A stretch of DNA of 64,000 nucleotides from Candidatus Cloacimonadales bacterium. Lineage in GTDB: Bacteria; Cloacimonadota; Cloacimonadia; Cloacimonadales; JAFGVF01. The translations under genes were made by a program, and so were the position numbers. The stretch spans positions 2,784,001 through 2,848,000 of the forward strand of contig OY762964.1 of assembly GCA_963667035.1 (NCBI GenBank). Direction: 5' to 3'. The notes below the pieces were generated by a model. The model searched no databases. It had not been told where the DNA came from and was given only the letters and a program-made list of their open reading frames with translations. Positions 8,313-59,174 of this stretch are shown here, piece after piece (position 1 is the stretch's first letter; the number at the start of each line of letters is the position of its first letter).

Positions 8313-8334
8313 CTACAAGTCAATTAGGTTATTT

Positions 8335-9798
8335 TTACTCTTTAAAAACTGCTTTCAATTCAGGATTGTTAGGATCAATAGCCTTTGCTATTTTCCAATT
8401 ATCGTAGGCTTTTTTACTATCTCCCATTCTGTAGTATATGGAACCTAACTTGATATAGGCTAGAGCCATATTGGGTGCTAAACGGATTGCTGCCTTGCAC
8501 TCTAGAACAGCTTCTTCAAGCTTGCTTTGATAGTAGTATTTAGTTGCTTTAGTTATATGAATCAAAGCTTCATTTAAGTCCTTGTAATCCTTTAGCTCAA
8601 GCCGAACTGCATCAAGCTCTTTTGATTTTCTTAAATACTCATCCGTTGAAATGCCTGTAAACACTTTAAGTGTGTCTACGACATAAATAGTATCTTTGAT
8701 AATCTTCTCAACTTCAATATAAAGAGTGTCCATTGAAACCGGTTGCATTGACTCAACAACCTTCATAGGTTCTCTGATAATTTCTCTTTGAACTCTTGGA
8801 GGTATATGAGATGCAAGTTTATATTCCTCTGTTGTTGAATTACCGAGTTTAACTTCAAGTCCAATGAAGTGATTGCCATATGGAATCTCTAAATCAGAAA
8901 AGAGGGGGTAACTAAAGCCGTAATCAAGAGAAAGGTCTATTGATTTGGTATTTATCATTTCTCTATTGTTTAACGGATTTCTATACTTCTGAATATACTC
9001 TTTCCGTAGAACTAATAGACCTAATCCAAAACTCATTTCATTGTTATTTACACCACTTCTAAAAGCTAGATTTTCAGTAAGTCTATATTCTGTGCCTAAT
9101 GAATACGTAAAATCATTGAAGTCTTTTTCCTTGTAGCTGTTGTACGTTACATCAGAGGCTATTAACCATTGAGGAATAATGTTATACGTTGCACCTAATC
9201 CAAACTCTCTTGGCAGGGCATCATCTGCCTCTATTGCTAACTTTGTTTGAAATATATTCCTACTAACAAATCCCATTTGAAAACCGGTTGAGACCAGATA
9301 TGCTACCCCGAAGTCCATATCAATAGCGGATTTACTTGTGTCATTGTTCACAAAGAAAGGATCATTAGCTGTATATTCATTTGTTCCGTAGTCGATGTTA
9401 TATAGATTAAGTCCAAAACCAGCTTTCAGTTTGTCACCAAATAGATACGAACCAGCATGAAGGCCTACATGGATTTCGTTATATAAATCCGATTGGAAAA
9501 TAGATGAACTGAATGCCGTACTGAATTGATTGCCAATAGGGATTGTTAGAATAACAGCATTGTAATCCAAATTGTCGTTTTCGATACCATAAAGATATGC
9601 TCTATTATCTGTTAATAGCGAGAAGTCACTCAAATGAGCCAGTAAAGCAGGATTATAGACAGAAGCAGAACCATCATAGGATTGAGAGATTCCTGTTTTT
9701 CCCATAGAAAAATTTCTTATTCCGGCTTTCTCAAAAGTATAAGCTATTAGGTTAGAAATGATAAACAAAGCAGAAATTATTATTACTATTCTTTTCAT
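8335..9798 (-). CDS. PorV/PorP(SprF)-like outer-membrane beta-barrel with C-terminal stalk, coiled coil and TPR
   Basis: Signal peptide from ATG 9798 (GGGAGG SD); PorV-type N-terminus GIRNFSMG...ASVYNPALLA; amphipathic strands (LGTEY, FRSG, FGLGL, LDYGF); TPR AIRLAPNMALAYIKLGSIYYRMGD. Confidence 0.75.
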   Translation of the reverse strand: MKRIVIIISALFIISNLIAYTFEKAGIRNFSMGKTGISQSYDGSASVYNPALLAHLSDFSLLTDNRAYLYGIENDNLDYNAVILTIPIGNQFSTAFSSSIFQSDLYNEIHVGLHAGSYLFGDKLKAGFGLNLYNIDYGTNEYTANDPFFVNNDTSKSAIDMDFGVAYLVSTGFQMGFVSRNIFQTKLAIEADDALPREFGLGATYNIIPQWLIASDVTYNSYKEKDFNDFTYSLGTEYRLTENLAFRSGVNNNEMSFGLGLLVLRKEYIQKYRNPLNNREMINTKSIDLSLDYGFSYPLFSDLEIPYGNHFIGLEVKLGNSTTEEYKLASHIPPRVQREIIREPMKVVESMQPVSMDTLYIEVEKIIKDTIYVVDTLKVFTGISTDEYLRKSKELDAVRLELKDYKDLNEALIHITKATKYYYQSKLEEAVLECKAAIRLAPNMALAYIKLGSIYYRMGDSKKAYDNWKIAKAIDPNNPELKAVFKE

Positions 9799-9808
9799 CA
9801 CTTCCTCC

Positions 9809-12800
9809 CTACTTTGCAACCGTTATTGTGTTTAGATGAACTTTGCCATTAACTTTTACCTGACACAGATAGATTCCCGGAGAAACTAATTTCCCACTTT
9901 GATTTACTCCTTCCCAAACTGCTGATTTGCAGTTATAAGTCTGATTAGTTTCAGGATTTATATAATTGTATGTGCTACAGGATAACTTCTTAACCTTCTT
10001 ACCACTACGATTAAAAACTATACAATCAACCTTATCATTCTGAGAATCAACCGGGATTATTATGCGAGCCTGATCGTTGTAACCATCCCAATTAGGAGTT
10101 ATTATATCCGGTATTACTGTTACTCTATCAATATCAGTATTTTTAAAAATGTTTATCGAGAACTGAGCCTCAGCTCCTAATGGTTCAGGCTTTGATTTAT
10201 CATGGGCCGCAATATCAATACTTAATTGTTGTCCCTCATAGTAATAGTTATCAATTATATAAGTTAACAGATAGCCTAAAGAATCAGGATTTGAATTATA
10301 AGTAGAATTATCAAGATTAAAACTGTTTATGTCTCGGTTGTTAATTTTAAGACTAATCGAGGTTGAGTCTATTCCAGTTCCTTTATCTAGGATAGCTATT
10401 TCTAAAGACTCATTAATCTTAATTTCGCTTTCAGGATATTTAAGTATAAAATATGGTTCAAACTCATCCTCTATTAAGTTAAAACTATACTTATCTTCAA
10501 GAAGATTACCTATATTATCAGCAATAGAATATGAGACTTCAACGGTTTCAGCCCCATTCAAATCATCTGTAATATAGCGTATTTTACACCCATTGTCTGA
10601 TAACTCTGTATAAAAATCAAAAATCGGTGTACTATTGATGTTGAAGGAAATGTTGTTTGGATTAACACCGGAAAGGTCATCGTAAAAGTGGAGATATATA
10701 AGAGAGAAAGGATATCCAAACTCTCCTTCGGCAGGATTAGACATTACAAGATAAGGAGGATCAATATCATTGATTGTAGTAAAGTGGTAATTAATGCTAG
10801 CTTCATTATGATTTGAAGAGTTGTCTATAGCATAAATCTGAATATTGACTGTCTGATTATAATTGAATTTTGATTCCGGTGTGTAGAGAATGGAGTAACC
10901 TGTTGCTTCATTTTCTATAACTTCCTCAATCAGATAATCCTCAATCTGTTGATTATTGATATTAAATAGGATGGAGTTTGGATTTACTCCTGTTTCTGTA
11001 TCCATGATTCTGAAAGATATAGAAGTATCAATAGGTATTCCAATGCTTTGTTGAGCAGGATTAAAGCTTTCAAAATACGGTGGAATCATATCATCATCTG
11101 CAACTACAAAACTAAAATTATAATTAGAGAGTGAATTAGGTATCGGAGCAAGGTCGGAAACAGAAACAACTATTGTGACAGTTTCACCATATTCATACGG
11201 CTCATGATTCCATGTAATCCTATAATTACTTTCATTTTCTATTTGCTCTGTTACAGGTATAATCTCAACGTTATTCTCATGAATAACTAAAGAATTAATA
11301 TCCACACCTAATCCTGAATCATGAATCTCAAATGACACATTCTCTGTTGCCGGAACTCCAATATCATTATTCTCCGGATGTAAGTTGCTAAGAAACGGTG
11401 GTTCAATATCAGGTATTACTCTAAAAGAGTATGAAGTATCCATAGAATTGGGAACAGAAGCCAAGTCTTCACAAATAACTCTTACTGTAACCCATTGGTT
11501 GAAATCAAAATTGACACTTGATGTGTATAGAACATCGACTTGCTCTATGGTTTCATTAACTATTATGTACTCGGTAATATCATTTTCATTTATATATAAT
11601 CTAACGGATTTAGGATTGACACCGGTTAACTCGTCTTTCAAAGATAAGGTAATATCTGTATTAGGCAATACGTTTAACTCTTGGTCTGCCGGTGATGTTG
11701 AAGAAATGTATGGTGTTCCCAAATCTTGAATACAGGTAAAAGTGTATTCTTCCATATTCATAACATTTGCAGGTATATTATAATCTGATGCATTAATTTG
11801 TACTGTGACAATATTGCTATAATAGTTCTCAGGAGTATGAGAGATTCTATATCCATTTGTGATTTCATCTACCTTTGTTGAGTTCAATCCAATAATCTCT
11901 ACTCCATTAATTCTAATAGAGACGGTTTCTAAATCAATTCCTGAAAGAGTATCAATAATATCTACACTAAATGATGTGTTTTCAGGATTGTCCATACTGA
12001 ACTTCTCCGGATGATGATTCATAGTATAAGGAGGTTCCAGATCAGCTTCTACAGTAAATACGGAAAGAGTATCGATTGAATTTTTTAATGCAGACCTGTC
12101 TTCAATATAAAAGTGTATTAAATGTTCTCCAATCTCAAATATATTATCTGGCATTGGATTCCATGATAATCTTATTCCTTTATCACTCTGAATAGGTATT
12201 ATCTCAGTTTCATTGATAATTGAATTGTTATCAAGCTCTAGGATTAGGGAATCTATATTCAAGCCTGATTCATAATCGACAATCTCTATGGTGACGGGAT
12301 GATTTCTTGCAATTACTTCCTCATAGGTTGGATCAATATACAAAATAACTGGAGATGAAATATCCTCTAAACATTGAAAAGAGTAAGCAAAAGTACTCAT
12401 AGCATTCGGACTTTCAGCAAAATCAGAAGCACTAATTAAAACATTTACCGTTTGTTCATAAGCGAAGTTTGCTGAGGGATTGATTTCGATAAAGTAATCG
12501 TTAGGAGTTCCATAATAAGAAAATTCAGAATCATCCTGAGTATAAATATTCCCATCAATATTGACTTTGATAGTAGATAAATCTACTCCTTCACCTAAAT
12601 CTAAAATATGGAATGATATATTTGTATCTACACTTACGTCAGTATCTCCCGGAGCCGGATTCCATGTACTAGTATAAGGAGGATCCGTATCCTGACGAGT
12701 AAAAAAACGATAAGCTGTTGTAGGAATTGTGAAGCCATCATTATCATTCGCTACAACAGAGACATCAATAACTTGATTGTAACCAAAGAATTCTTCAGGA

Positions 12801-14470
12801 TTTATAGCAATTCTATAACTATTTAGAGCTCCTGAGTAAGTGAGATTAGGAGAGTTTATGTCATAGATTGTTCCTGCAATGACTACTCTTATTGAGTTGA
12901 TATCTATCTCTTCATCATCTGTTAATGAAAATGATACTGGCTGAGCAATATCTACATCACTAGCTCCATTTGATGGAGTTGGATTGCTAAAGTAGGGAAT
13001 CCCTCCAAGTATTGTTGTGGCACTTCCAAAGTTATTATATCCTTGAGGTGCAGCAATAGTGATGTCCATCTTGTCATCATTATTAAAGTCATGAACTACA
13101 AAATCAGAACCAAGCCTATCATCTACAGAGTTTCCAATTATCCTCATATCAGGATTACTATCTTCTATGTTAATGTTTATAGGAGGATTGTCTTGACCAT
13201 AAAGAATATCAACTTTACCACTTCCAATACCATTTATTGTTGTTGCCCCAGAAGTTCCGATTATTAAATCTTGAATTTGGTCTCCTGATAAGTCTTTAAT
13301 TAACAAAGTACTTCCAAAATTATCATCAGTTTCTTCTGCCGTTATAACCATATTGGCATTATTCTGATTCAATTCAATACTTGAGGGTAGAGAGTTACTA
13401 CCAAACAACAGATAGATTCTACCCCGTTCCAGATCTGTAGAAAAATCCGTGATTACTAAATCATCGTTGTTATCATGGTTATAATCTCCACAAGCCATTG
13501 AATTCCCAAAACGGGAATTCTGCTCTCGTGCCTTTATCGTTAGATTAACATAATTGGAATTACCAAGTGATATCTCTTGGTATGGCATACTGGTTCTACC
13601 ATAAACAACATATATAGCACCACTATTATTGTATATACCATTATCATAACCCGGAGCAGATACTAAAAGATCATTAAATAAATCATTGTTTATATTACCG
13701 CTAGAAAAAGAAAATGAGGAATTGTCATTAGAGTTTAAACCTAGAAATACAGTTATGTTATCCAACTCATTAATAGTACTTTGTTGAGGATAAGTGGAAT
13801 TGCTCCACAGAATATAAGTCTTTCCGCAATTATTTGCTACATTACTATCAGCAGTCGGAGCACCAATAATTATTTCGGATTGTGAGTCATTATTTATATC
13901 TGTTAGTATTAGACTTGAGCCAATTAAGTCATTTTGAGAAGAGCCGATAAAAGTTTGAGTTTCGTATTCAGCCAAATCAATAAGTGAAGGAAGTTGATTA
14001 CTTCCCTTTATAACATAGACTTTTCCAGTTTGGTCCAGTATATCAGTGCCTGCATAAGGTGCTCCAATAACCAGGTCTGAATATATATCCGAATCAATGA
14101 GGCCGGAATCTATTGATTTTCCCAATTGATCGTTGTTTTCTGCTCCGACTATAGTTACATCTGCATTTGAGATTGATAGATTAATGTATTCGTAATTAGG
14201 AATTGATTCATTACCAAAAAAAATGTAAACAGCACCGGCTGAATTCCTTCCTTGAAAATCAGAAAAAGGAGCAGAGCATATCAAGTCGCTTATTCCATCA
14301 CCATTAATATCACCACTACAAATATCGTAAGAAAAGAAATCAAAGGCTGTGTCTCCAGATACGCAATGGTTACCATTCCATTGTGATAAGTCATAATTTA
14401 CAAATGAATCCAAATCAAGTAAAGCTATGAATACGATAAATATAAGTGCGTAAACTTTTTTTGTGCTCAT
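9809..14470 (-). CDS. Large surface protein: FG-GAP (integrin-alpha-like) beta-propeller, about 8 tandem Ig-like repeats, type-B (CHU_C/gliding-motility-type) C-terminal sorting domain
   Basis: Seven FG...GDxNxDxxxDLxxxAP...GxVYxxxG repeats; ~110-aa repeats D.xPPY...P...ISFxIxD..xGV; C-terminus IITPNWDGYND...VFNRSGKKV...WEGVNQSGKLVSPGIY. Confidence 0.85.
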   Translation of the reverse strand: MSTKKVYALIFIVFIALLDLDSFVNYDLSQWNGNHCVSGDTAFDFFSYDICSGDINGDGISDLICSAPFSDFQGRNSAGAVYIFFGNESIPNYEYINLSISNADVTIVGAENNDQLGKSIDSGLIDSDIYSDLVIGAPYAGTDILDQTGKVYVIKGSNQLPSLIDLAEYETQTFIGSSQNDLIGSSLILTDINNDSQSEIIIGAPTADSNVANNCGKTYILWSNSTYPQQSTINELDNITVFLGLNSNDNSSFSFSSGNINNDLFNDLLVSAPGYDNGIYNNSGAIYVVYGRTSMPYQEISLGNSNYVNLTIKAREQNSRFGNSMACGDYNHDNNDDLVITDFSTDLERGRIYLLFGSNSLPSSIELNQNNANMVITAEETDDNFGSTLLIKDLSGDQIQDLIIGTSGATTINGIGSGKVDILYGQDNPPININIEDSNPDMRIIGNSVDDRLGSDFVVHDFNNDDKMDITIAAPQGYNNFGSATTILGGIPYFSNPTPSNGASDVDIAQPVSFSLTDDEEIDINSIRVVIAGTIYDINSPNLTYSGALNSYRIAINPEEFFGYNQVIDVSVVANDNDGFTIPTTAYRFFTRQDTDPPYTSTWNPAPGDTDVSVDTNISFHILDLGEGVDLSTIKVNIDGNIYTQDDSEFSYYGTPNDYFIEINPSANFAYEQTVNVLISASDFAESPNAMSTFAYSFQCLEDISSPVILYIDPTYEEVIARNHPVTIEIVDYESGLNIDSLILELDNNSIINETEIIPIQSDKGIRLSWNPMPDNIFEIGEHLIHFYIEDRSALKNSIDTLSVFTVEADLEPPYTMNHHPEKFSMDNPENTSFSVDIIDTLSGIDLETVSIRINGVEIIGLNSTKVDEITNGYRISHTPENYYSNIVTVQINASDYNIPANVMNMEEYTFTCIQDLGTPYISSTSPADQELNVLPNTDITLSLKDELTGVNPKSVRLYINENDITEYIIVNETIEQVDVLYTSSVNFDFNQWVTVRVICEDLASVPNSMDTSYSFRVIPDIEPPFLSNLHPENNDIGVPATENVSFEIHDSGLGVDINSLVIHENNVEIIPVTEQIENESNYRITWNHEPYEYGETVTIVVSVSDLAPIPNSLSNYNFSFVVADDDMIPPYFESFNPAQQSIGIPIDTSISFRIMDTETGVNPNSILFNINNQQIEDYLIEEVIENEATGYSILYTPESKFNYNQTVNIQIYAIDNSSNHNEASINYHFTTINDIDPPYLVMSNPAEGEFGYPFSLIYLHFYDDLSGVNPNNISFNINSTPIFDFYTELSDNGCKIRYITDDLNGAETVEVSYSIADNIGNLLEDKYSFNLIEDEFEPYFILKYPESEIKINESLEIAILDKGTGIDSTSISLKINNRDINSFNLDNSTYNSNPDSLGYLLTYIIDNYYYEGQQLSIDIAAHDKSKPEPLGAEAQFSINIFKNTDIDRVTVIPDIITPNWDGYNDQARIIIPVDSQNDKVDCIVFNRSGKKVKKLSCSTYNYINPETNQTYNCKSAVWEGVNQSGKLVSPGIYLCQVKVNGKVHLNTITVAK

Positions 14471-14595
14471 GATAACTCCTTAAAAACGACTTTAATAAGT
14501 CCTGGAATGCATAAAGTCAAACAAAAAAAATATTAATTTTTTACTTGCCACATAAAAGAGAATTGAATTTAATCCAATTATCTTGGGAGGATTGG
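14471..14595. promoter_or_regulatory. Back-to-back sigma70-type promoters shared by the adhesin arm and the motor arm
   Basis: Plus strand TTGCCA(14545)-17 bp-TTTAAT(14568); minus strand TTGACT(14520)-17 bp-TATTAA; symmetric A/T tract between the -35 elements. Confidence 0.5.
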
Positions 14596-15975
14596 ATGAT
14601 AAGGAAAACTGTTATTTACTTGTTGATTATCTCTGTGCTCTGTTGTGTCGTTGAGTTATATTCAGAAACAACAAGCTCTTTAGCAGAGTTAAAAGCTGAA
14701 ACTGAACTTGCAAAACGCATTGAAGACCTAGTGAAACCATTTACTGAAAAAGTTATTGTTGGAGTTGATCTTGATTTAAGATATAATCTATTTGAGACTA
14801 ACACTTCAGATTTCAAGTTCGATCCCAATATGAGCCTACCCGGTTTACCGGTAGGTAAAACAGATAATAGAATAGTTGAGAATGATCTTGAAGATGTAGT
14901 ACCAACTGAAATATTAAGAAAGAAAATTAGTATTAAAGTTCCATTAGATACTTCCAAAGAAGTAATCGAATTTCTCAATCAAGAAATACATAATATTATT
15001 ACAATAGATGAGAATAAAGGGGATATATTGCAGATAACCCCTGAATCTAATCTAACCAAGTATATCCGTTCAAAGAATAACAGGTTACAGACTTACTTTT
15101 TTCTCACCTTAATTGCAGTTATGATTTTAATGCTGAATAATATACGTAGCGGTATGAGAATAATTGCCAAGTCAATGAGAAAAATCAAAATCACTAACCT
15201 TGAAGTTCTAAATAAATCAAAAACACCGGAGATAATTAATAATAGTACTTCTGAACAAACTCATCCCAGAATTCCTCTTGAACCTATAAAAGTAAAAGTT
15301 CTTCAAGATGAAGAAGAAGATTTGATGCCAACGAGATTCGATTTCTTAGAAGATCTTTCGGATGCTAACTTGTTAGAAGTTTTAAGAGAAGAGAATCCCG
15401 AGGATATAGCATTTATTGTTTCTCAAATCTCTCCAGAAAAAGCAGGAGCTGTTTTCCAGAATCTAAAAGAGAATAAAGAACAAGTAATAAATGCAATGTT
15501 AGAAAATCAATCAAAGCTGAAGCTAGACCTTAAAATCCTAGTTGTTAATTTATATAATAAGTATCTGGAAATTATGGAGAAAGAAGCAATTCAGTTAGAG
15601 GGTGTAGGTCTACTCGCAAAAATAATAAACAGTTCGGATTATGAGAGTTCTAACATTCTATATGAATCCATAAATAATCTTGATAAAGATAAGGCTAAAG
15701 AGATTGCGAAAAAGATATTCTTATTGGATGATGTCTTATTGCTGTCTAATATTCAAATTGAACAGATTTCTCTTGAATTTACTCATCTAGAGTTAGTTAA
15801 ATTCTTAGCCTGTGTGAATACAAGAATAAAGAACAAATTCTTCTCTCAACTTTCGGAAAGAGCAACAATGATTTTTAAAGAGGACATAGAATCTCTAGGT
15901 AAGCTTTCGGAAGGAGAAAAGAGAGTTATATTGAATCACTCATTGAGAAAAATTCGTAATATTCTAAATTTCTAA
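14596..15975 (+). CDS. FliF(RBM3-like ring domain)-TM-FliG(middle + C-terminal) fusion protein
   Basis: ATG 14596 with GGAGG SD; FliF-like ELAKRIEDLVKPF..VIVGVDLDL, LPGLP and IDENKGDILQI; TM; FliG-like RFDFLEDL...EENPEDIAFIVSQI, KKIFLLDD and SQLSERATMIFKEDIESLG. Confidence 0.75.
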   Translation: MIRKTVIYLLIISVLCCVVELYSETTSSLAELKAETELAKRIEDLVKPFTEKVIVGVDLDLRYNLFETNTSDFKFDPNMSLPGLPVGKTDNRIVENDLEDVVPTEILRKKISIKVPLDTSKEVIEFLNQEIHNIITIDENKGDILQITPESNLTKYIRSKNNRLQTYFFLTLIAVMILMLNNIRSGMRIIAKSMRKIKITNLEVLNKSKTPEIINNSTSEQTHPRIPLEPIKVKVLQDEEEDLMPTRFDFLEDLSDANLLEVLREENPEDIAFIVSQISPEKAGAVFQNLKENKEQVINAMLENQSKLKLDLKILVVNLYNKYLEIMEKEAIQLEGVGLLAKIINSSDYESSNILYESINNLDKDKAKEIAKKIFLLDDVLLLSNIQIEQISLEFTHLELVKFLACVNTRIKNKFFSQLSERATMIFKEDIESLGKLSEGEKRVILNHSLRKIRNILNF

Positions 15976-15985
15976 AAGGTTTTTT

Positions 15986-16723
15986 ATGAAAATAAGTACA
16001 CTATTAGGTATAGTTTTAAGTATAGTGATTATTGTTTTTGCCATTAATGCAAAAGGTAGTTTAGTAGAATACTTTGATCCAATAGCTTTGATGGTAACAT
16101 TAGGGGGAACTGTTTCAGCTCTTTTGGCAACTTACTCGTTTTCTAGCCTTAAAGATGCAATAGAATCGTTGAAAGTAGTTTATTTTACACCGCCCATACC
16201 GCATGACGATATGGTCGAGATAATGATTGGAGTGAGTAAGGATTCTCGTTCATTAAGTTTTATGGAAATTCAAAGCTATGAAGAAGTGCAAAATATCCCA
16301 TTTCTTAAAACAACTATTACAATGTTAGCTGATAATCTTCCCAAAGACAAAATTACTGATTTTCTTGAGTCTGAAAGTAGATCAATACTTAGAAGAAGAA
16401 TTCGTTCAGCTAAGATATTCGGAGTTGCTGGAAATCTGTCACCAATGTTTGGTATGATTGGTACAGTAATTGGACTAATAGCTATGCTTGGCAATATGAG
16501 TGATCCTTCTGTTGTCCCTAGAGCTATGAGTCTTGCTCTCGTTACAACTCTATATGGATTAATTCTATCTGTGATAATTTTTAGACCAATAGCAGGTAAG
16601 ATATCTTCAGGAGCAGAATATGACTATATCAACAGAGAAATCATTATTCAAGGTATCTCAGGAATTATTGAAAAACGCAACTCGGAGATAATTAAGACTG
16701 AGTTGACTAAAATTTATGCATAA
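15986..16723 (+). CDS. motA: Stator A subunit (MotA/PomA family)
   Basis: Four TMs; FDPIALMVTLGGT, PFLK, SPMFGMIGTVIGLIAML, AMSLALVTTLYG and PIAGKI. Confidence 0.9.
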   Translation: MKISTLLGIVLSIVIIVFAINAKGSLVEYFDPIALMVTLGGTVSALLATYSFSSLKDAIESLKVVYFTPPIPHDDMVEIMIGVSKDSRSLSFMEIQSYEEVQNIPFLKTTITMLADNLPKDKITDFLESESRSILRRRIRSAKIFGVAGNLSPMFGMIGTVIGLIAMLGNMSDPSVVPRAMSLALVTTLYGLILSVIIFRPIAGKISSGAEYDYINREIIIQGISGIIEKRNSEIIKTELTKIYA

Positions 16724-17372
16724 TAAAGACAACAATAAAGTTAATCAAGTTTTGTCTGATATCGAGGATAGCCTCATAAATACTCCAGACAATGATTTCT
16801 CAGGATTTTATTCAGCTTTAGTTCCTTATGCTGATATGATGACTTTACTACTCATTTTCTTCGTTTTCTATTTTGTCATAGGAGATACAGAAACAGGGTG
16901 GAAGGCTATTGCCGAGATACAAAAGAAGAAACTTAATAACAATATCCAATCAGAATCCATAGCAGAAACTGAGATGTATGAAGGTGATATTAGCGAAAAG
17001 GTAATATCAATACCGGGGAATATCCTCTTTGAATCTGGTGAGGCAAACCTTAGATGGTTGTCTCAAGATACACTTATTAAAATTGCTATGGATATAAAGA
17101 AGATCGTTAAAGACGATGATAGCTGGCAAATTCGTATAGAAGGACACACAGACAATGTTCCTATTGCCAATAATAAATATGCTTCAAACTGGGAGCTTTC
17201 TACAGCAAGAGCTTTGAGCATTGTGAAGTTTTTTATTAGAAATGGCTACTTTACTGCAGATCAACTACAGATTATGGGGTATGGAGAATTCAAACCTCTA
17301 GTACCAAATGATACAGAAGAGAATCGAAATAGAAACAGACGCGTTGAGATTAAAATCAGTCAGAAAAGATAG
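16716..17372 (+). CDS. motB: Stator B subunit (MotB/PomB family) with OmpA-like peptidoglycan-binding domain
   Basis: TM PYADMMTLLLIFFV with the ion-binding Asp; IEGHTDNVPI, SNWELSTARA, GYGEFKP and NRRVEI. Confidence 0.9.
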   Translation: MHNKDNNKVNQVLSDIEDSLINTPDNDFSGFYSALVPYADMMTLLLIFFVFYFVIGDTETGWKAIAEIQKKKLNNNIQSESIAETEMYEGDISEKVISIPGNILFESGEANLRWLSQDTLIKIAMDIKKIVKDDDSWQIRIEGHTDNVPIANNKYASNWELSTARALSIVKFFIRNGYFTADQLQIMGYGEFKPLVPNDTEENRNRNRRVEIKISQKR

Positions 17373-17380
17373 GAGGGATA

Positions 17381-18217
17381 TTGATAGATTATTATAGTTT
17401 TTGGGATATCAAAGAACCACCTTTTGAAGATAACAATGATCCTAAGTTTTTCTATAAAAGTATAGATCATTATGAAGCACTTGAAAGACTGAAGTATGTA
17501 ATTAACTCAAGAAGCATGAACATTGGACTGCTTAGTGGAGAAATAGGAACCGGAAAAACCATTACAAAAATGGTTTTGATTTCTGAACTTAAGAAACAAA
17601 ACCCACATAATGTTATTGTAAACATTAACTCATCCTTGTTCACTTTTAATGAGATTATTACAGAAATACTCTCTCAAATCATGGATATAGATCCAATAAA
17701 TTTACCAACTAAGAGATACTATTTGTTTAAGAAACTTGAAAGATATATTGAAGACGAGTTATTATACACTAAAGGATTAATTTACATATTTTTAGATGAA
17801 GCTCAGAAGATTACTCCTAAAGACTTGGATTTACTAAAAGATTTAACTAACATTAACTATAATTATTTCTGTCCTGTAAAGCTAATGCTTATTGGACAAC
17901 CGGCTATATTGAGAAATGTGAAAAAACTTCCACAAGTTGATCAAAGAATTGGTATAAGATTTCATCTAAACAATATGAATGAGGAAGATACTAATGCATA
18001 TATTGATTACAGGCTTAAAGTATCCGGATCTCAAAAAAAGATTTTTAGTGATAGTGCCCTATCTTTAGTTTATAAAAAAACTTCAGGAATTCCAAGAGAA
18101 ATTAACAGAGCATGCAAAATTGCAATGGATGTAGCCTCTGCTGAAAAAGAAAGCCTCATATCAGGAGAAGTTATGGAAATGGTTTTTAATGATTTATCTT
18201 ACCATGGAAGAGAATGA
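17381..18217 (+). CDS. ExeA/GspA-family AAA ATPase without a peptidoglycan-binding domain
   Basis: TTG start with AGGAGG SD; PF...DPKFFY...H.EAL; Walker A GEIGTGKT; Walker B FLDEAQ; LIGQP, QRI and GIPREIN. Confidence 0.88.
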   Translation: MIDYYSFWDIKEPPFEDNNDPKFFYKSIDHYEALERLKYVINSRSMNIGLLSGEIGTGKTITKMVLISELKKQNPHNVIVNINSSLFTFNEIITEILSQIMDIDPINLPTKRYYLFKKLERYIEDELLYTKGLIYIFLDEAQKITPKDLDLLKDLTNINYNYFCPVKLMLIGQPAILRNVKKLPQVDQRIGIRFHLNNMNEEDTNAYIDYRLKVSGSQKKIFSDSALSLVYKKTSGIPREINRACKIAMDVASAEKESLISGEVMEMVFNDLSYHGRE

Positions 18218-20775
18218 TAATGCCTAAGAAAAGACTCTCTATTTCAAATATTAGAAGTAAGAAAAGCGAGAATGAATCAACTGAAGTTATACTTCCTGAG
18301 TTAGAAGATAATCAGGCTGATTCCGACACTAAACTTGTTAAAGAAATTCCTAAATCAGCAAACCAAGGTGATGGGAATATCGATAATCCAAGAGTGAAAA
18401 CAGAAACTCAAGATGATCTAAAATCATTAAAGCATAATCCAACAGGATTTATCTCTAATCACAATGAGGAAAGCGAACCTTCGCTACTAGAATATCTTGA
18501 AGTTGGATACCGAAACAAATGGTTAATTCTAATCATTACTCTTTTGTGTATTATTGGGGCATATGTTTTACACATTAGAAAAGTTCCTTTATTTAGAACT
18601 AGAACTAAAATATTCATCCATGATGATTCAATGGAGCTGGAAGTAATTAATAATAAGCCATTCATAAAAGGGAAAATGGATGTTGCTACTTGGATGGAAA
18701 TACTAAAGACTAGAGATGTCTGTAAAAGAGTCTCTGCATACATGAATAATACTATATCTCCCCAAGAAGCTAAGTTGATGATTAACTGTACTAGCTCAAA
18801 AAATGAAGAAAACATCATTTCAATCACCTCAACTAATCCTAATCCAGTTATAGCTACGGACGTTGCTAATAATTTCTATCGTGCACTTAGAGATTATGAT
18901 ACGGAAGCCAACAAGCGTAACATTAACAAAACCATAGATTATCTTGAGCATCAACTAAGAGACAAAAATCACGAGCTTGATTCCTTAAACACAGCAGTAA
19001 AAGCTCTTTATGCTAATATAGATTTTAAAAACTACGGTGATAATTTGCATGAAAACTTAAAGCGTTTAAATGCTTTCAAACATAATTTAACAACTGTAGA
19101 AGTAGAGTTAGAAGCTGAGAATGCAAACATAAAAGTTTTGAACTCCAAGCTTAAAGAGGAAGATTCAACCTATATTACTGAAACAACTTATAGTGAACCA
19201 CTTAAAATTAAACTGATGAATCTTGAAGTTGATTTAGCTAGAGCTTTAACTACCTATGGGGAGAATCATCCAAAAGTTATAAGTCTACGTACTAACATAG
19301 CAAACATTAAGAAACTTATTTCAGATGGTGTTGAAGAAAGCATTCAAATGAGGAGTATTGGTCAAAATCCGTTAAAACAACAGATTCTAAAGGATCTCGT
19401 TGAATCTCAGACCAGGTCAATATCTTTAACCCAAAAACGTAATGCTTTGAGAAAAGTAATAAAAGAAATGGAGTTGTCTCCTAAAGATAACTCTATGCTG
19501 GTAAATAAGCAAAGAGAGAAAGATGCTTTAATACTTACCATCACTAACCTTCAAAACCAGATTAATAAAGTCAGATTGAATGCTAACATAGATTTTAACA
19601 GAATAGTTCAATTGGAAGAGGCAACTATTCCGCAGAAACCAATTGGTAAAAATCTACTCTTAATGCTTCTTAATGGATTAGGATTGGGTGTTGCTTTAAG
19701 TAGCATCTTAGTTTTTTTACTTACTAGGTTTGATAACAAGATTAATACTATTAATAAACTTCTTCATGTTTATCCGAACATTCCTATCATAGGTACAATA
19801 CCTAGGTTCAAGTTTAGTCCTATTAAGATTGATGCTCAAACTTCTAATCTAACAGAAGAGGAATTACAGAACAAGGATTTGGTAAACAGTGTTTTCAATG
19901 AAATTGCTTTAAATTTCCGATACCTGATTCTTAACAAAAGGAATAATGCTATTGCAGTGGTGAGTTCTTTAAAAGGCGAAGGCAAATCAACTATAACGAA
20001 CTATTTAGCAGTTGCTTTAGCTAATAATAATACTAAGACTCTTCTTGTTGATGCAGATTTCTATAATCCTCAGATATCTCGATATTACAGTAAAACTAAA
20101 GCATTCGGATTCTCCGAAGTTCTATCTGAACAAATACCATTGCATGAAGTGATAATAAATACTAAAATTGATAATCTTATGATACTGCCATCAGGCAAGT
20201 GTCCTCCAAGTGTTGGACATCTTTATCACAGTGACAGATTTAAAGAGATTATACAAGAAGTAAAGTCTGTTTGCGATATCATAATTATTGATACTCCTGC
20301 TTCAATGTATTTCCCGGAGACATCAGTACTTGTTAATGAGATGGATTGTGTTCTCCTAACTGCAAAGATGGGATTTACTACAACAATCAGTTGTAAAAAA
20401 TTACTAAAGAAGATACAAATCCTAGATACCAAAATTGGGGGAGTAATTGCAAATTCAATGTTAAAAGAGGTTTTCGATAAAACCTATAGTGATTACTACA
20501 ATTATAGTTATGAATATTACTCCCGATACCATAACTACACAAACAATCAAAAGCAGAATTCTTTAACAAAACATATACCTACAGATTTGTTTAAAGTAGT
20601 AAAAAAGAAGGATAAGTTGGAAAGAACATTCTTGCAGGAAGGTGAAATTCTAGACTATGAAGCTCAATCTGAAACAAATTTCGGAAGAATAAATAAAGAT
20701 AAAACCTTTGGGCTATTTCTAAAAAAATTAAAACGTTTCCTTGGTCTTGATGATGACTTTGATTTAGGAGAATAG
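18214..20775 (+). CDS. wzc: Wzc-like polysaccharide co-polymerase / BY-kinase
   Basis: Two TMs flanking a coiled-coil periplasmic domain (YGENHPKV); Walker A SSLKGEGKST; DAD; DTP; Tyr cluster YSDYYNYSYEYYSRY. Confidence 0.88.
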   Translation: MIMPKKRLSISNIRSKKSENESTEVILPELEDNQADSDTKLVKEIPKSANQGDGNIDNPRVKTETQDDLKSLKHNPTGFISNHNEESEPSLLEYLEVGYRNKWLILIITLLCIIGAYVLHIRKVPLFRTRTKIFIHDDSMELEVINNKPFIKGKMDVATWMEILKTRDVCKRVSAYMNNTISPQEAKLMINCTSSKNEENIISITSTNPNPVIATDVANNFYRALRDYDTEANKRNINKTIDYLEHQLRDKNHELDSLNTAVKALYANIDFKNYGDNLHENLKRLNAFKHNLTTVEVELEAENANIKVLNSKLKEEDSTYITETTYSEPLKIKLMNLEVDLARALTTYGENHPKVISLRTNIANIKKLISDGVEESIQMRSIGQNPLKQQILKDLVESQTRSISLTQKRNALRKVIKEMELSPKDNSMLVNKQREKDALILTITNLQNQINKVRLNANIDFNRIVQLEEATIPQKPIGKNLLLMLLNGLGLGVALSSILVFLLTRFDNKINTINKLLHVYPNIPIIGTIPRFKFSPIKIDAQTSNLTEEELQNKDLVNSVFNEIALNFRYLILNKRNNAIAVVSSLKGEGKSTITNYLAVALANNNTKTLLVDADFYNPQISRYYSKTKAFGFSEVLSEQIPLHEVIINTKIDNLMILPSGKCPPSVGHLYHSDRFKEIIQEVKSVCDIIIIDTPASMYFPETSVLVNEMDCVLLTAKMGFTTTISCKKLLKKIQILDTKIGGVIANSMLKEVFDKTYSDYYNYSYEYYSRYHNYTNNQKQNSLTKHIPTDLFKVVKKKDKLERTFLQEGEILDYEAQSETNFGRINKDKTFGLFLKKLKRFLGLDDDFDLGE

Positions 20776-21857
20776 TGAAGATAAAAAAAGATAGAATTAA
20801 GCGTAAGCATATATATGCTATAACATATCTTTTGATTATAATAGCTACAATCATTATACTTTTATTATTACCTAGGTCATGTAGCTATTCAGGTACTATT
20901 TATGCCGGAGTCGGAGGATGTGTTTATGATCCCGGTGTATATCCTATGTACAAAGGTATGACTTTATACGAGTTGATTCGTAAAGCAGATGGTATGAAAC
21001 CTAATGCTGACTTAGATCGCTTTAATCCGGATATGATTATTGAGCCATGGGAATCATATTGTATTCCCTGCAAAATAAAAAAAGACCCTCCTGTTAAACA
21101 AATTATTGCAGAAGTAGCTCCTTATGCCCCTAAACGAGAGCTTAATGATGTAGACCGCTTCACGATTATCTATGCAGGTTTACCAAGAACTTTTATACTT
21201 CTAGATGTTTATCCGAATTACGGACTCATATCAGCAACACATATTCCTTGGTTTACAGCAGTACATGATTTAGTCGGAAATGTAAAGACTCTCTATGAAA
21301 TGTATTTAATCGGAGGAACTGAAGCATTGGTAAGGTCAGTGTCTGATGTTACCCAGACAAATATTGACTACTACTTCGCTCAGGATAGACCTGCTTGGAT
21401 TAAATTTATTGATTATCTTGGTGGAGTAAAAGTAGACATTCCGGTTGAATTTGCAAAGCAATACAGAGTAAATAGTGGTATTCATATAATTGATGGATAC
21501 ACTTCTTGGTTCTATATTACCTTTATTTCCAAAGAAATGAGAAGAATAGATTATAAAACCGGCTCAATGAATAGAATCACTCGTCAAAAACTTTTTATGG
21601 AAGAGCTATATGCCAAATTTAAGAATCTGGATTTCTTTAGAAGTAGTCAGATTGGAAAATCCATATTAACAGATGCTGAAACGAATCTCTCTGCAGCTCA
21701 AGCCATAGAACTATCAAACAAAGTCAGGAAGATGTCTTCAAACAATCTAAAGCTTTTCACTTATCCGGGCGTTATCATTAATTATAATGGAGAGAACTAT
21801 TGGGAAGTTAATCCTATCAGATATAAAAATAAAATCTTTAATGAGATAAATAATTGA
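20775..21857 (+). CDS. Membrane-anchored SLBB + LCP (LytR-CpsA-Psr)-like protein, LCP motifs degenerate
   Basis: N-terminal TM; SLBB VGGCVYDPGVY...TLYELIRKADG; LCP-like IDYY, FIDYLGGVKVD, RITRQK and ETNLS. Confidence 0.75.
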   Translation: MKIKKDRIKRKHIYAITYLLIIIATIIILLLLPRSCSYSGTIYAGVGGCVYDPGVYPMYKGMTLYELIRKADGMKPNADLDRFNPDMIIEPWESYCIPCKIKKDPPVKQIIAEVAPYAPKRELNDVDRFTIIYAGLPRTFILLDVYPNYGLISATHIPWFTAVHDLVGNVKTLYEMYLIGGTEALVRSVSDVTQTNIDYYFAQDRPAWIKFIDYLGGVKVDIPVEFAKQYRVNSGIHIIDGYTSWFYITFISKEMRRIDYKTGSMNRITRQKLFMEELYAKFKNLDFFRSSQIGKSILTDAETNLSAAQAIELSNKVRKMSSNNLKLFTYPGVIINYNGENYWEVNPIRYKNKIFNEINN

Positions 21858-21864
21858 GGTATTC

Positions 21865-22587
21865 ATGCGTATTATTCTTGTTACTTTACTTTTTTTAACT
21901 ACATTTTCGGTATTTGCCCAACAAACTTATATTCCCCGTATGGCAAAAGATGACTTTTTTAACGGTGAAACTGATCTATCTAACATACCTGATTCGCTAT
22001 TGGTCAGTACAGAAGATGAATACATTCTTAGAAAAGGTGACAGAATATCAATTTATGTAATGGATCATTTAGAGTTCTCAAAGCCTCAAATAATGATATT
22101 ACCTGACGGAAGTATTGAGTATCCTTTGATAGGAACTCTGAGAGTTGCAGGACTTAACTCTGCTCAACTAAGGGCTATTATTGAAGAACGTTTACGTCCT
22201 TACGTGACTATACCCATTGTTACTATCTATATTGAAAAAATATTCGGAGAGAAACTCAATATAATTGGCTATGTTAATGGACCTGGAGAATATCAGCTTT
22301 ACGAACCTATAAGAATCACTGATGCTATTGCAATGGCAAAAGGTATTATAAACATTAGAGAAGTTAAAACTATAAGAGTTATTCGTAAAGATGGAGACGT
22401 GTTTAACGTAAGCCTTAAACATATATGGTTTAATGATGATGATGAGACAAACTACAGAGAAAATCTTCTTCTTAATCCGGGAGATACGCTTATTGTACCT
22501 CCTCCTCGAAGATTTAACTGGAGAATGTATACTGCAATAATTGCAACTCTATCACTTATTCTTCAGATATATATAGCTACTAACTAA
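21865..22587 (+). CDS. Wza/OPX-like polysaccharide export protein (Poly_export + SLBB)
   Basis: YILRKGDRISI, ILPDGSIEYPLIGTLRVAG, GYVNGPGEY, DAIAMAKG, LNPGDTLIVP and a C-terminal hydrophobic helix. Confidence 0.85.
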   Translation: MRIILVTLLFLTTFSVFAQQTYIPRMAKDDFFNGETDLSNIPDSLLVSTEDEYILRKGDRISIYVMDHLEFSKPQIMILPDGSIEYPLIGTLRVAGLNSAQLRAIIEERLRPYVTIPIVTIYIEKIFGEKLNIIGYVNGPGEYQLYEPIRITDAIAMAKGIINIREVKTIRVIRKDGDVFNVSLKHIWFNDDDETNYRENLLLNPGDTLIVPPPRRFNWRMYTAIIATLSLILQIYIATN

Positions 22588-23926
22588 AGTTTTTTATTCT
22601 TTTCATATAACTAATCGTCATAGCTAATGAAAGAATGAATGATCCTGCATCAGCAATTGGGAAACTCCACCAAACACCGTTTAACCCAAGAATTCTTGGA
22701 AGTATAAGTATGAGAGGTATCATGAACATTATCTGTCTGGCAATTGATAATACGAAAGAGGGAGCGGCTTTTCCTATGGCTTGGAAAAATGATCCTGACA
22801 TTACTTGAAATCCTACTAAGAAGAAAGCTGTAACTATAATCCTAAATGCTGTTGAACCTAAAGCAAGCACTTGTAAATCAGTAGTAAACATTCGAATCAA
22901 AAAAGATGGAATAGCTAAAACAACTAACATTCCTGTTATAGATATAATAGAGGCTCCTATTGTCGCATCTTTCATAACCTTTCTAACCAAATCATGTCTT
23001 TTCCTTCCATAGTTAAATCCTACAATAGGTTGCAGTCCCTGACCAACACCAAACATAGGCATCATCATGAATGACATAGCTCTGTTGATAACTCCATAGG
23101 CAGCTATTGCTAAATCTCCACTATATGTTTTTAAAGTTTGATTGATAATAGCTATCAGAACGGATCCTCCAATTTGTCTTACAAATGAAGGCATTCCAAT
23201 AATTATAACTTCTTTAAAAATCTGTGGATTCCATCTATATTGCTTAAACTTAAGTTTGAAAATACTTCTACCACTTATGTAATAGTAAAACAGATATATA
23301 ACTGTACATATCTGGGATATAACTGTTGCAATTGCAGCTCCTTTAATTCCCATATTAAAAACGAATATGAATATCGGATCAAGAATAATATTCATACCTG
23401 CAGCTAATAGCATACTTATCATTGCCCATTTAGCATTACCTTCAGCTCTAACGACGTTGTTGTTGACCTGCATAAAAGTTAAGAACAAGGTTCCCATAAA
23501 GATAACCCTCATATATTCTTTAGCATAAGGCATGATTGCCTCAGTTGCTCCAAAGACTTTTAATATAGGCTCAAGAAATAGTTGTCCGCAGATAACAACA
23601 ATTGTAGTAAAGAAAAGGACACTTATATGAATAGTATAAAGGGTTAATTCCGCTTTCTTAAAGTTATTCTCACCCAAAGAGCGGGATATAAGTGAAGCTC
23701 CTCCCATTCCAAATACGAAAGAAAATGCCATTATAGCCATCTGTATGGGGAAAGCTATTGTCAGTCCGGCTAAACCCATTGTTCCTACTCCGTGTCCAAT
23801 GAAAATGGCATCAACAACATTGAAGAGGGCCATTACTATCATTCCCGTCATTGCGGGAACAGAAAGTCTTATAAGCAATCTACCAACATGTTCATCTGCT
23901 AATATATGTGTATCGTTTTGTTTCAT
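22580..23926 (-). CDS. MATE family efflux transporter (MepA-like)
   Basis: LSVPAMTG, NVVDAIFIG, RAEGNAK, NIILDPIFIF..GIKGAAIAT, QPIVGFNYG; about 12 TMs. Confidence 0.92.
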   Translation of the reverse strand: MKQNDTHILADEHVGRLLIRLSVPAMTGMIVMALFNVVDAIFIGHGVGTMGLAGLTIAFPIQMAIMAFSFVFGMGGASLISRSLGENNFKKAELTLYTIHISVLFFTTIVVICGQLFLEPILKVFGATEAIMPYAKEYMRVIFMGTLFLTFMQVNNNVVRAEGNAKWAMISMLLAAGMNIILDPIFIFVFNMGIKGAAIATVISQICTVIYLFYYYISGRSIFKLKFKQYRWNPQIFKEVIIIGMPSFVRQIGGSVLIAIINQTLKTYSGDLAIAAYGVINRAMSFMMMPMFGVGQGLQPIVGFNYGRKRHDLVRKVMKDATIGASIISITGMLVVLAIPSFLIRMFTTDLQVLALGSTAFRIIVTAFFLVGFQVMSGSFFQAIGKAAPSFVLSIARQIMFMIPLILILPRILGLNGVWWSFPIADAGSFILSLAMTISYMKRIKNFS

Positions 23927-24157
23927 TACGTTCCTTAATCACTTTATTTAAGCTCAGACAGATTAAAGTCAATTATCCTGCAAGCAAAAAGAAAACTTTA
24001 GATTGTTTAGGGAGAAATATACAATAGGTATGATTCTATTGTCTACTCCAACGCTATCAATTGTTATTGATTTAATTAGCAATGTTTAATTAGGATACAA
24101 ATCCTATAATCTCTTGCCAAGAATAAATCTTCTATTTTACTTGAAATTAACAAAATC

Positions 24158-59159: not shown

Positions 59160-59174
59160 TAAAAACCCCTTTGT

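Follow-up and report, generated by a model that had tools for sequence, protein, structure and literature searches.

To our knowledge, FliF and FliG are known only from the flagellum, and MotAB of the flagellar type only as the flagellar stator. In the flagellar motor, the C-domains of FliG take torque from MotA, MotB anchors the stators to peptidoglycan, and ring-building motif 3 (RBM3) domains are ring builders. In E. coli, the charged residues of the FliG torque helix (R281/D288/D289) meet R90 and E98 of MotA, and a MotAB phylogeny sets the flagellar proteins apart from generic ion transporters, with no non-flagellar FliF/FliG partner described in the excerpted text (PMC12505986). Engineered FliF-FliG fusions of Vibrio and Salmonella assemble rings (PMC10941966, PMC11481574, PMC6079021). 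In Bacteroidota, type IX secretion system (T9SS) cargo proteins whose C-terminal domain (CTD) is of type B bind PorP-like barrels, e.g., SprB-SprF (PMC9143113), and SprB is moved by proton-driven motors (PMC8986121). Here, we describe a nine-gene block in a Candidatus Cloacimonadales bacterium that encodes a natural fusion of FliF and FliG parts together with a MotA/MotB pair, an adhesin, an outer-membrane barrel protein and an ATPase/Wzc/LCP/OPX export set. The block lies in a 64,000-nucleotide stretch, the window, which covers positions 2,784,001-2,848,000 of a single-contig, closed 3.10-Mb Cloacimonadota genome (contig OY762964.1) rated 98% complete; the G+C content of the window is ~33%. 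No description of a non-flagellar FliF/FliG-MotAB system was found in open-access papers and bioRxiv, in agreement with the first-pass annotation of this DNA, which was made from the sequence alone and knew of no described system of such composition.

A FliF-FliG fusion with a MotAB stator in a genome without a flagellum

Given the identities of the parts, the critical residues kept in them, the linkage of their genes and the lack of a flagellum, we tentatively read the block as a rotor-stator machine, non-flagellar and driven by protons, whose target is a carrier of the adhesin in the outer membrane, and which in this genome is joined by a dedicated polymer exporter. We infer the output function, and we give the reading as a whole somewhat less than an even chance. 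The features of the block are as follows, where TPR stands for tetratricopeptide repeat, LCP for LytR-CpsA-Psr, OPX for outer-membrane polysaccharide export, TM2 for the second transmembrane helix of FliF, and M and C for the middle and C-terminal domains of FliG.

8335-9819, minus strand: barrel-TPR protein, with a likely ATG start at 9798
9809-14470, minus strand: adhesin of 1553 aa (open reading frame (ORF) map and Pfam)
14471-14595, no strand: divergent spacer of 125 bp between the adhesin operon and the motor operon (ORF coordinates and the common N-terminus of the homologues)
14596 (ATG)-15975, alternative TTG start at 14545, plus strand: FliF(RBM3+TM2)-FliG(M+C) fusion of 459 aa (Pfam, profile, AlphaFold2 and Foldseek)
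15986-16723, plus strand: MotA/PomA-type stator A subunit of 245 aa, 10-bp gap after the fusion gene
16716-17372, plus strand: MotB-type stator B subunit of 218 aa, 8-bp overlap with MotA
17381-18217, plus strand: soluble AAA_22 ATPase of 278 aa, 8-bp gap after MotB
18214-20775, plus strand: Wzc-like polysaccharide co-polymerase (PCP) of 853 aa, 4-bp overlap with the ATPase
20775-21857, plus strand: SLBB-LCP membrane-anchored protein of 360 aa, 1-bp overlap with the Wzc-like gene
21865-22587, plus strand: short OPX (Wza-family) protein of 240 aa, 7-bp gap after SLBB-LCP

The tight packing of seven plus-strand genes claimed in the first-pass annotation is borne out by the ORF map, with gaps of 7-10 bp or overlaps of 1-8 bp, and the 125-bp divergent spacer it had measured holds with the ATG at 14596, which is the start common to all fusion homologues. 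The two minus-strand ORFs overlap by 11 bp, or lie 10 bp apart when the ATG at 9798 is used. In a consensus scan of 8000-24200, neither promoter-like sites (80 vs. 78.5 in shuffles) nor terminator-like sites (7 vs. 6.8) were in excess. The part identities that had been assigned (FliG, MotAB, AAA ATPase, Wzc, LCP, OPX and an FG-GAP/Ig adhesin) found matching domains in Pfam and NCBIfam.

The fusion protein matches FliG_C (1.9e-13) and FliG_M (4.2e-7) in Pfam, and is laid out as an N-terminal signal or transmembrane (TM) helix, a periplasmic domain (residues 29-149), a TM helix (161-196), a disordered linker and the FliG M and C domains (249-456). When a profile of 11 homologues was compared with the PDB, residues 248-457 aligned to the M and C domains of FliG in 3hjl (113-320, E 2.3e-21) and in 1lkv; the FliG alignment begins at the middle domain, and the FliG N-terminal domain is absent. 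The FliF part of the protein is missed by Pfam PF01514 (YscJ_FliF), which has no match genome-wide, and distant fusion members reach YscJ_FliF_C at 20-22 bits, just under the cut-off of 23.8. A 49-sequence profile matched both FliG (6e-50) and FliF (1e-5 to 3.4e-4) in the PDB, with profile positions 117-194 aligned to FliF 418-498 in 8z5s (E 1e-5), positions 117-220 to FliF 404-513 of Salmonella in 6scn (1.8e-4), positions 24-149 to the 144-residue chain of 9yh6 (3.4e-4), and a further FliF match to 12dr (1.3e-4). The AlphaFold2 model obtained from 11 sequences, with a predicted local distance difference test (pLDDT) value of 56, was too weak to use and was superseded by a model from the 49-sequence alignment (pLDDT 81.7). 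In the latter, the periplasmic domain is composed of a helix (29-46), a strand (54-63), a loop (64-103), a strand (104-115), a helix (121-135) and a strand (144-149), which as modelled is the alpha-beta-beta-alpha-beta fold of a ring-building motif plus an insertion; the inserted loop 64-103 is of low model confidence and holds the invariant SLPGLPVGK. A Foldseek search of the PDB with this model returned FliG at ranks 1-13 (E 2.7e-9 to 1.8e-6) and the RBM3/S-ring/collar of FliF at ranks 14-31 (e.g., 7bk0_B at 5.6e-4, and 8z5v_A at 8.5e-4 with a TM-score of 0.47 on the target), with SpoIIIAG at rank 38 (E 0.26). Since the 49-sequence profile and the pLDDT-82 fold both match FliF and FliG, the gene first taken for FliG encodes a true fusion, as the first-pass annotation had proposed, in which FliF is reduced to RBM3 and TM2 and is joined to a FliG without its N-domain; the covalent link replaces the contact made in the flagellum between the FliF C-terminus and FliG_N. 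The segment Q418-L-S-E-R422-A...K428-E429-D430, invariant in 11 fusion sequences, aligns to the FliG torque helix, with R422, E429 and D430 placed at its charged positions; at least 90% of the 49 sequences retain R422 and E429. The fusion is rare in databases: a word-indexed search of 5.8 billion proteins gave 11 homologues, and 38 cluster representatives were obtained at E<=1e-30 among 1.84 billion. One metagenomic protein of 996 aa (P0051) carries FliM, five DUF4116 repeats and FliG M+C, with two FliG_C stretches, in a single chain.

The gene downstream of the fusion encodes a MotA that matches MotA_ExbB in Pfam (6.8e-24) and the MotP/PomA/MotA models of NCBIfam (1e-38 to 1e-43, under the equivalog cut-offs). 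Its best PDB match is PomA (8brd, 1.1e-32, residues 1-240), followed by clostridial and Bacillus MotA; TolQ is reached only at E 0.0085. Both channel prolines are kept in 25/25 MotA orthologues, and the column of PomA R88 is basic in 24 of them (R in 17, K in 4, H in 3, L in 1). MotB matches OmpA (2.9e-18) and MotB_plug (4.4e-7) in Pfam and MotB 6ysl in the PDB (1.3e-24); its transmembrane Asp40 is kept in 23 of 24 orthologues, and the plug and an OmpA-type peptidoglycan-binding domain are present. The stator claimed from the first reading stands, and by their sequences MotA and MotB can be classed as a flagellar-type stator in which the residues required for ion flow and peptidoglycan anchoring are kept. 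The genome has six MotA_ExbB matches, five of them outside the block.

Across the whole closed genome, FliG_C has one match, which is the fusion gene, and FHIPEP/FlhA, Flagellin_N, YscJ_FliF, FliMN_C and Flg_bb_rod have none; each of these flagellar-family searches matched in four flagellated control genomes. The absence of flagellar genes, noted at first for the window, therefore holds genome-wide, and a full flagellar system elsewhere that would use these genes was looked for in the closed genome and not found. Among 232 genomes of the phylum, FHIPEP occurs in 24, with none in 11 genomes of family f1, to which this genome belongs, and none in 62 of family f12. FlhA is missing from 46 of the 49 fusion-bearing genomes; the other three (G118, G119 and G121) have FlhA together with the fusion, and a separate canonical FliG is present in G118 and G119. 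A second FliG match was not found in G121, which is 81% complete.

Conservation and phylogeny of the module

When one genome per species was scanned, nine loci came up; eight are from Cloacimonadales/Cloacimonadota, and the ninth is a deltaproteobacterial canonical FliG. In all eight related loci, the nine genes stand in the arrangement of the window and the flanks differ. The identities are 40-68% for the fusion, 52-77% for MotA, 58-78% for MotB, 53-77% for the ATPase, 42-65% for Wzc, 50-74% for LCP, 50-69% for OPX, 44-60% for the adhesin and 45-69% for the barrel protein. A gene order that is not conserved in relatives had been named at the outset as a sign of chance juxtaposition; by synteny, all eight loci keep the order. 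In the window, the block is flanked by a MATE transporter and AsmA on one side and by a 223-aa ORF without a Pfam family and a 1104-aa DUF4901 protein on the other, and these genes are not kept in relatives except for MATE, which recurs in the closest relative only.

Beyond these loci, the fusion profile matched 72 of the 232 phylum genomes, which were split by match range and ORF length into 49 with a membrane fusion, 20 with a canonical FliG of ~350 aa only, and 3 with a weakly matching 675-aa ORF. The 49 carriers belong to families f1 (9, including this genome), f6 (3), f12 (34), f15 (1) and f17 (2). Fourteen more regions were fetched; the region of G119 with its flagellar FliG was among them, and the other 13 were counted as distant fusion loci. 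In all 13, the fusion and MotA are adjacent; MotB was detected by tblastn in 12, and locus L011 has a short plug-only ORF. The barrel-TPR gene lies directly upstream in 8/13, with a large adhesin before it. AAA22 or Wzc occurs in 0/13, and LCP with OPX in L015 only. Taken over 23 relative loci, the fusion gene occurs 24 times, followed directly downstream by 24 MotA and 23 MotB genes. Full barrel-TPR genes number 16, with one more cut by a contig end, and barrel-TPR stands beside the motor genes in 17 of the 23. In four loci without barrel-TPR (L016, L018, L019 and L020), a YfiO/BamD-like TPR lipoprotein, present as two tandem copies in L018, follows right after MotB.

The distant genome G191 has the same nine genes as the window in another order. 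They share a single strand and, with two further genes, run AAA22, Wzc, LCP, OPX, hybrid histidine kinase, CheY-like receiver (123 aa), fusion, MotA, MotB, adhesin and barrel-TPR. Its FG-GAP adhesin is 36% identical over the full length, and its barrel-TPR protein 37% (E 7e-114). The G209 locus consists of LCP, OPX, fusion, MotA and MotB. The constant core across the phylum is the CHU_C adhesin, barrel-TPR, fusion, MotA and MotB. The composition claimed in the first-pass annotation stands for the rotor and stator; the constant partners, however, are the adhesin and barrel-TPR protein and not the capsule-export homologues.

Some carriers show variations on this layout. G144 has two tandem sets of fusion, MotA, MotB and TPR lipoprotein (L018, 7586-16072), and G188 has one motor module of the adhesin/barrel type and one of the TPR-lipoprotein type (L020 and L021). 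In G191 (L025, 8815-11543) and G132 (L029, 25-2814, 5726-6148 and 7666-8034), the gene directly upstream of the fusion encodes a CheY-like single receiver and has a hybrid or PAS histidine kinase gene as a neighbor, and a Cache-domain kinase lies upstream in G119; the window's block has no receiver or kinase gene inside it. In three loci belonging to a single genus (L013, 5975-6880; L017, 11088-11990; L021, 6664-7569), the gene right after MotB is MscS-like (MS_channel_2nd), and in L017 the two overlap. The receiver/kinase genes of G191 and G132 and the MscS-like neighbors of the three loci suggest regulated operation in some lineages, and the CheY-like receivers might provide the motor with a switch input there. 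In G191, a gene for a TMEM260-like protein O-mannosyltransferase with TPR (L025, 192-2777, minus strand) is divergent from the string of nine genes.

A quick maximum-likelihood tree, unrooted, was computed from the last 215 residues of 120 rows, comprising 73 fusion sequences and 47 canonical FliG including the flagellar FliG of G119. All 47 canonical sequences fell on one side of a branch with a Shimodaira-Hasegawa-like approximate likelihood-ratio test (SH-aLRT) value of 92, apart from the fusion clade. The fusions formed a Cloacimonadota-type clade of 63 rows (99) and a second clade of eight rows (99), one member of which is labelled at source as Candidatus Electryonea clarkiae. In this tree, the canonical FliG of G119 does not group with the fusion of the same genome. 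From this tree it can be said only that the fusion did not arise by recent copying of the flagellar FliG of the phylum itself. Since its FliG domain falls outside all 47 sampled canonical FliG, the fusion lineage could be as old as the flagellar motor. The three weakly matching ORFs are from G203, G205 and G208 (family f14, closed genomes of 1.5-1.6 Mb); they are 671-676 aa long and match the FliG-middle part of the profile at E 2.6e-6 to 1.8e-5, and these genomes gave no FlhA or SprA matches.

The adhesin carrier, the export set and competing explanations

The adhesin consists of N-terminal FG-GAP repeats (1.2e-34), a Big_5/Ig-like stalk (Big_5 3.8e-16) and, encoded at 9812-10171, a C-terminal CHU_C domain, which is a sorting domain like those of T9SS type-B cargo. 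When its last 120 aa were scanned alone, CHU_C scored 31.5 bits against a cut-off of 27, and CHU_C was matched by 15 of 16 orthologous adhesin tails (best 4.6e-10); TIGR04131 reached 19.5 bits on the full-length protein vs. a cut-off of 35. The bodies of the adhesins differ among relatives (cadherin-like, PKD, Big_9, Big_5 or FG-GAP), and the last ~100 residues are common. Of 16 barrel-TPR genes, 15 have an adhesin ORF directly upstream, and the sixteenth is at a contig end. The barrel-TPR protein has an outer-membrane beta-barrel at about residues 25-320, followed by a C-terminal periplasmic TPR. In the window's protein, TPR matches above the cut-off and PorV_fam, TraF_2 and Toluene_X under it (Pfam and NCBIfam); NF033709 PorV_fam gives 32 bits with a cut-off of 90, and neither PorP_SprF nor PorV was matched in Pfam. 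Among 17 orthologues, TPR was matched in all, TraF_2 in 10, OMP_b-brl in 8, Toluene_X in 7, PorP_SprF in 4 (best 8.4e-6) and PorV in 4, so that the barrel looks weakly FadL/PorV/PorP-like by sequence. The FG-GAP/Ig adhesin of the first-pass annotation was therefore confirmed, and its "PorV-like" label for the barrel was not, as the window sequence falls under every curated cut-off.

Given that RBM3 builds rings, FliG-C takes torque, MotB anchors and type-B cargo bind PorP-like barrels, we propose the following mechanism. The fusion protein would assemble a small MS/FliG-like ring in the inner membrane, and peptidoglycan-anchored MotA5B2 units would use the conserved torque helix to turn or push this ring. 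On its periplasmic side, the ring may then act via the TPR partner on the barrel that carries the adhesin in the outer membrane. In this way, proton flow would move, tension or deploy the adhesin, making the apparatus a gliding-like or adhesion-control device, to which a dedicated PCP/OPX/LCP channel would be attached in the f1 lineage. A role of Wzc/Wza as a trans-envelope shaft or bushing, put forward in the first-pass annotation, is hypothetical.

With respect to this channel, the ATPase matches AAA_22 (1.8e-13, Pfam) and TIGR03015 (3.4e-41, 141 bits vs. a cut-off of 324), and resembles ExeA/MshM and the 'PEP-CTERM-associated ATPase', with the Walker A motif GEIGTGKT at residue 53. Hydropathy revealed no hydrophobic segment in it. 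Labelled ExeA at first, the protein is only a soluble AAA_22/TIGR03015-like ATPase without the membrane and peptidoglycan-binding parts of ExeA. The Wzc-like protein matches Wzz (3.9e-8) and AAA_31 (1.1e-12) in Pfam and TIGR01007 at 112.9 bits (cut-off 108), and has PCP-2a topology, with TM segments 100-125 and 480-507 on either side of a ~355-aa periplasmic domain, and a kinase-type P-loop domain in the cytoplasm. The SLBB-LCP protein matches LytR_cpsA_psr (2e-13) and SLBB (4.8e-5) and has an N-terminal TM anchor by hydropathy. The OPX protein matches Poly_export (4.1e-19) and SLBB_2 (3.2e-7), and has a signal peptide, one SLBB and a hydrophobic C-terminal segment (221-239). In NCBIfam, TIGR03015, TIGR03018, TIGR03007 and TIGR03027 were all matched in the block under their cut-offs. 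A reading of the set as a PEP-CTERM/XrtA exopolysaccharide locus was rejected, with exosortase PF09721 in 0/12 f1 genomes and a control match in one genome. Seven related loci (L003-L009, ~18250-21140, plus strand) have a 921-aa ORF after OPX on the same strand, which begins with a signal peptide, ends in Phe and belongs to no Pfam family, and for which no homologue was found in the window's genome.

In family f1, the carriers of the module have two OPX proteins, the short one in the operon and one of ~350 aa elsewhere, and the three non-carriers have a long one only; the OPX of the operon is therefore a dedicated extra paralogue. The SLBB-LCP gene is found in 14 of the 232 phylum genomes, all of which are among the 49 fusion carriers. 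In 11 of the 14 it shares a block with the fusion, and in the other three, which are fragmented assemblies, the AAA22-Wzc-LCP-OPX string is on its own short contig. The set is thus an optional accessory nested within the fusion carriers (14/232 vs. 49/232), and its probable task is to export or fix a polymer that this apparatus uses. The same data could be read with the order of importance reversed, so that the rotor and stator energize, gate or spool a polysaccharide through the Wzc/OPX channel and the adhesin is secondary. The motor genes here overlap the export genes or lie within 10 bp of them, the LCP gene is confined to fusion-bearing genomes, the operon has its own OPX, and the Agl-Nfs motor of Myxococcus, which moves spore-coat polymer, offers a precedent (PMC3858216). 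However, by the LCP marker, the export set is missing from 35 of the 49 fusion-bearing genomes, AAA22/Wzc are found in none of the 13 distant loci and LCP with OPX in L015 only, no synthesis genes are in the block, and the motor is accompanied more constantly by the pair of adhesin and barrel-TPR protein. We consider a polymer-export engine unlikely.

Another explanation is that the module is a sensor of force or proton-motive force, in which a static FliF/FliG platform with load-sensitive stators would report engagement of the adhesin or energization and would control adhesion or polymer release without sustained rotation. The CheY-like receivers and histidine kinases encoded next to the fusion in G191 and G132, the Cache-domain kinase upstream in G119, the MscS-like channel after MotB in three loci and the lack of a FliM/N switch would all fit a sensor. 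Against this, the torque-helix charges and the ion path of the stator are conserved as in torque-generating motors, and the regulators are in few loci only and are absent from the window's own block, and we judge a sensor to be improbable.

The CHU_C tail of the adhesin and the presence of SprA in the genome (one SprA_N match, in a 2063-aa ORF) bring up a third explanation, namely that the module is a private energizer of the T9SS which replaces or supplements PorLM/GldLM to secrete its own type-B cargo via SprA. Models for GldL and GldM matched nothing in the genome or in family f1 (TIGR03513 0, TIGR03517 0, PF12081 0/12), although these negatives have no positive control genome. The best GldK-like protein scored 76 bits vs. 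a cut-off of 350, and no PorL/M/N-like match was found among the neighbors of its gene in Pfam, NCBIfam or the PDB. However, SprA_N is found in 205 of the 232 phylum genomes, including 89 of the 98 genomes of family f3, in which the fusion is found in 0/98, and the T9SS of the phylum is thus independent of the module. Since SprA is widespread in this way, the module is not a general T9SS motor, and we regard a private energizer as improbable, too. The window also encodes a T9SS type-A cargo protein of 2376 aa (30550-37680, plus strand) with MAM, PPC, Ig-like, Cleaved_Adhesin and Por_Secre_tail domains.

That the genes are leftovers of a flagellum or a chance juxtaposition without joint function is very improbable: the FHIPEP matches show that some families of the phylum are flagellated and make flagellar loss plausible, but this explanation is contradicted by the conservation of nine genes in 8/8 loci at 40-68% identity between unconserved flanks, by the functional residues kept, by the separation of canonical FliG from the fusion clade (SH-aLRT 92) and by the coexistence of both in G118 and G119. 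A Zorya-like anti-phage system on a MotAB-type channel was rejected and has a negligible probability, since in PADLOC MotB matches ZorB models at 1e-20 over the generic MotB/OmpA region, MotA, whose best relatives are PomA/MotA, has no ZorA match, the fusion, LCP and OPX have no match, and the AAA_22 ATPase and the Wzc-like protein have one weak match each (mad8, 0.0017, and PDC-M28B, 0.00028).

Several observations weigh against the non-flagellar rotor-stator machine that we favor. A ring that rotates in the inner membrane cannot simply pull a barrel of the outer membrane along through the peptidoglycan, and the coupling of motor to barrel is therefore unexplained. The EHPQ motif of FliG reads ENPx in the fusion and the genome has no FliM/FliN, so that a switch, if any, must differ from the flagellar one. 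In MotA, the column of PomA E96 (E. coli E98) is acidic in 0/25 orthologues, being hydrophobic or Q, and acidic residues cluster 1-4 positions after it. PorP/SprF membership of the barrel is weak (4/17 members matched), the Wzc-like protein lacks a C-terminal tyrosine cluster (one Tyr in the last 40 residues), and no glycosyltransferase, flippase or polymerase was found in the block or the window flanks, which are the regions surveyed for them. The organism, moreover, is uncultured. It is possible, if doubtful, that a stand-alone rotary engine made from flagellar parts drives a T9SS-adhesin carrier and a lineage-specific polymer channel as a so far undescribed motility or adhesion machine.

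Elsewhere in the window, dnaA (Bac_DnaA 1.3e-69) is located at 38125-39459, and the cumulative GC skew turns from falling to rising near 38-40 kb. Since dnaA sits at the skew turn, the chromosomal replication origin is probably within the window, ~16 kb from the motor block. On the minus strand, 282-3631 encodes a CHASE2-adenylate/guanylate cyclase (704 aa) followed by an SH3+M48 peptidase (412 aa) with a 4-bp overlap, and at 57459-60452 an LPP20-lipoprotein-domain protein (566 aa) adjoins a DUF6175 protein (425 aa).

Comparison with described systems

Cloacimonadota are common in anaerobic digesters, and the proposal, if true, would suggest that these uncultured bacteria have an active surface-adhesion or gliding apparatus. 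The block would then represent an ion-driven envelope machine of a new class, to be placed next to the flagellum, Tol-Pal, TonB, GldLM and Agl-Glt, and a minimal natural rotor-stator pair of three proteins for structural and single-molecule work. On it one could also test how torque or force is carried across the periplasm, and it would add a data point on the modular origin of the flagellar motor, which could bear on how a rotor and stator worked before or without an axial filament.

Compared with Wzc/Wza capsule export and PEP-CTERM exopolysaccharide loci, the block has in common the PCP topology, the kinase-type P-loop, an OPX with Poly_export and SLBB, and a TIGR03015-like ATPase. In contrast to them, it lacks the tyrosine tail and synthesis genes, family f1 has no exosortase (0/12), its OPX has only 240 aa, and an SLBB-LCP protein is encoded between the PCP and OPX genes. 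The Glt set of Myxococcus includes TPR proteins and outer-membrane barrels, as the block does. Like the block, Agl-Glt/Agl-Nfs is an envelope-spanning set with a proton channel and an integrin-like adhesin, of which the Agl-Nfs version works with a Wzc/Wza-type exported polymer (PMC3858216, PMC9946355); Agl, however, is TolQR-like and has no rotor ring. The GldLM/SprB/SprF system of Bacteroidota resembles the block in its proton-driven inner-membrane motor of the 5:2 type (PMC8986121), as proposed for the block, in the large repetitive adhesin with a type-B CTD that is encoded beside its own barrel, PorP-like in Bacteroidota and weakly so here, and in the presence of SprA (PMC9143113). It differs in that the motor of the block is MotAB with a putative FliF/FliG ring, GldL/GldM were not found (searches without a positive control), the barrel of the block has a fused TPR and a GldKN ring was not identified.

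The flagellar motor core shares with the block a FliG M+C with torque charges, an RBM3-like domain and TM2 of FliF, and a stator that has the plug, the TM aspartate, the channel prolines and a domain for binding peptidoglycan. Unlike it, the genome described here is without export gate, rod, hook, filament and FliM/N, the protein of the block is without FliF RBM1/2 (PF01514) and FliG_N and has FliF and FliG in one polypeptide, and the partners are a barrel-TPR protein, a T9SS adhesin and export proteins. With the engineered FliF-FliG fusions it has in common the covalent fusion itself, and one of these, PDB 8z4d, was matched by the 49-sequence profile; but they are full-length laboratory constructs placed in a flagellum, whereas the fusion of the block is natural and non-flagellar, and consists of RBM3+TM2 and FliG M+C only.

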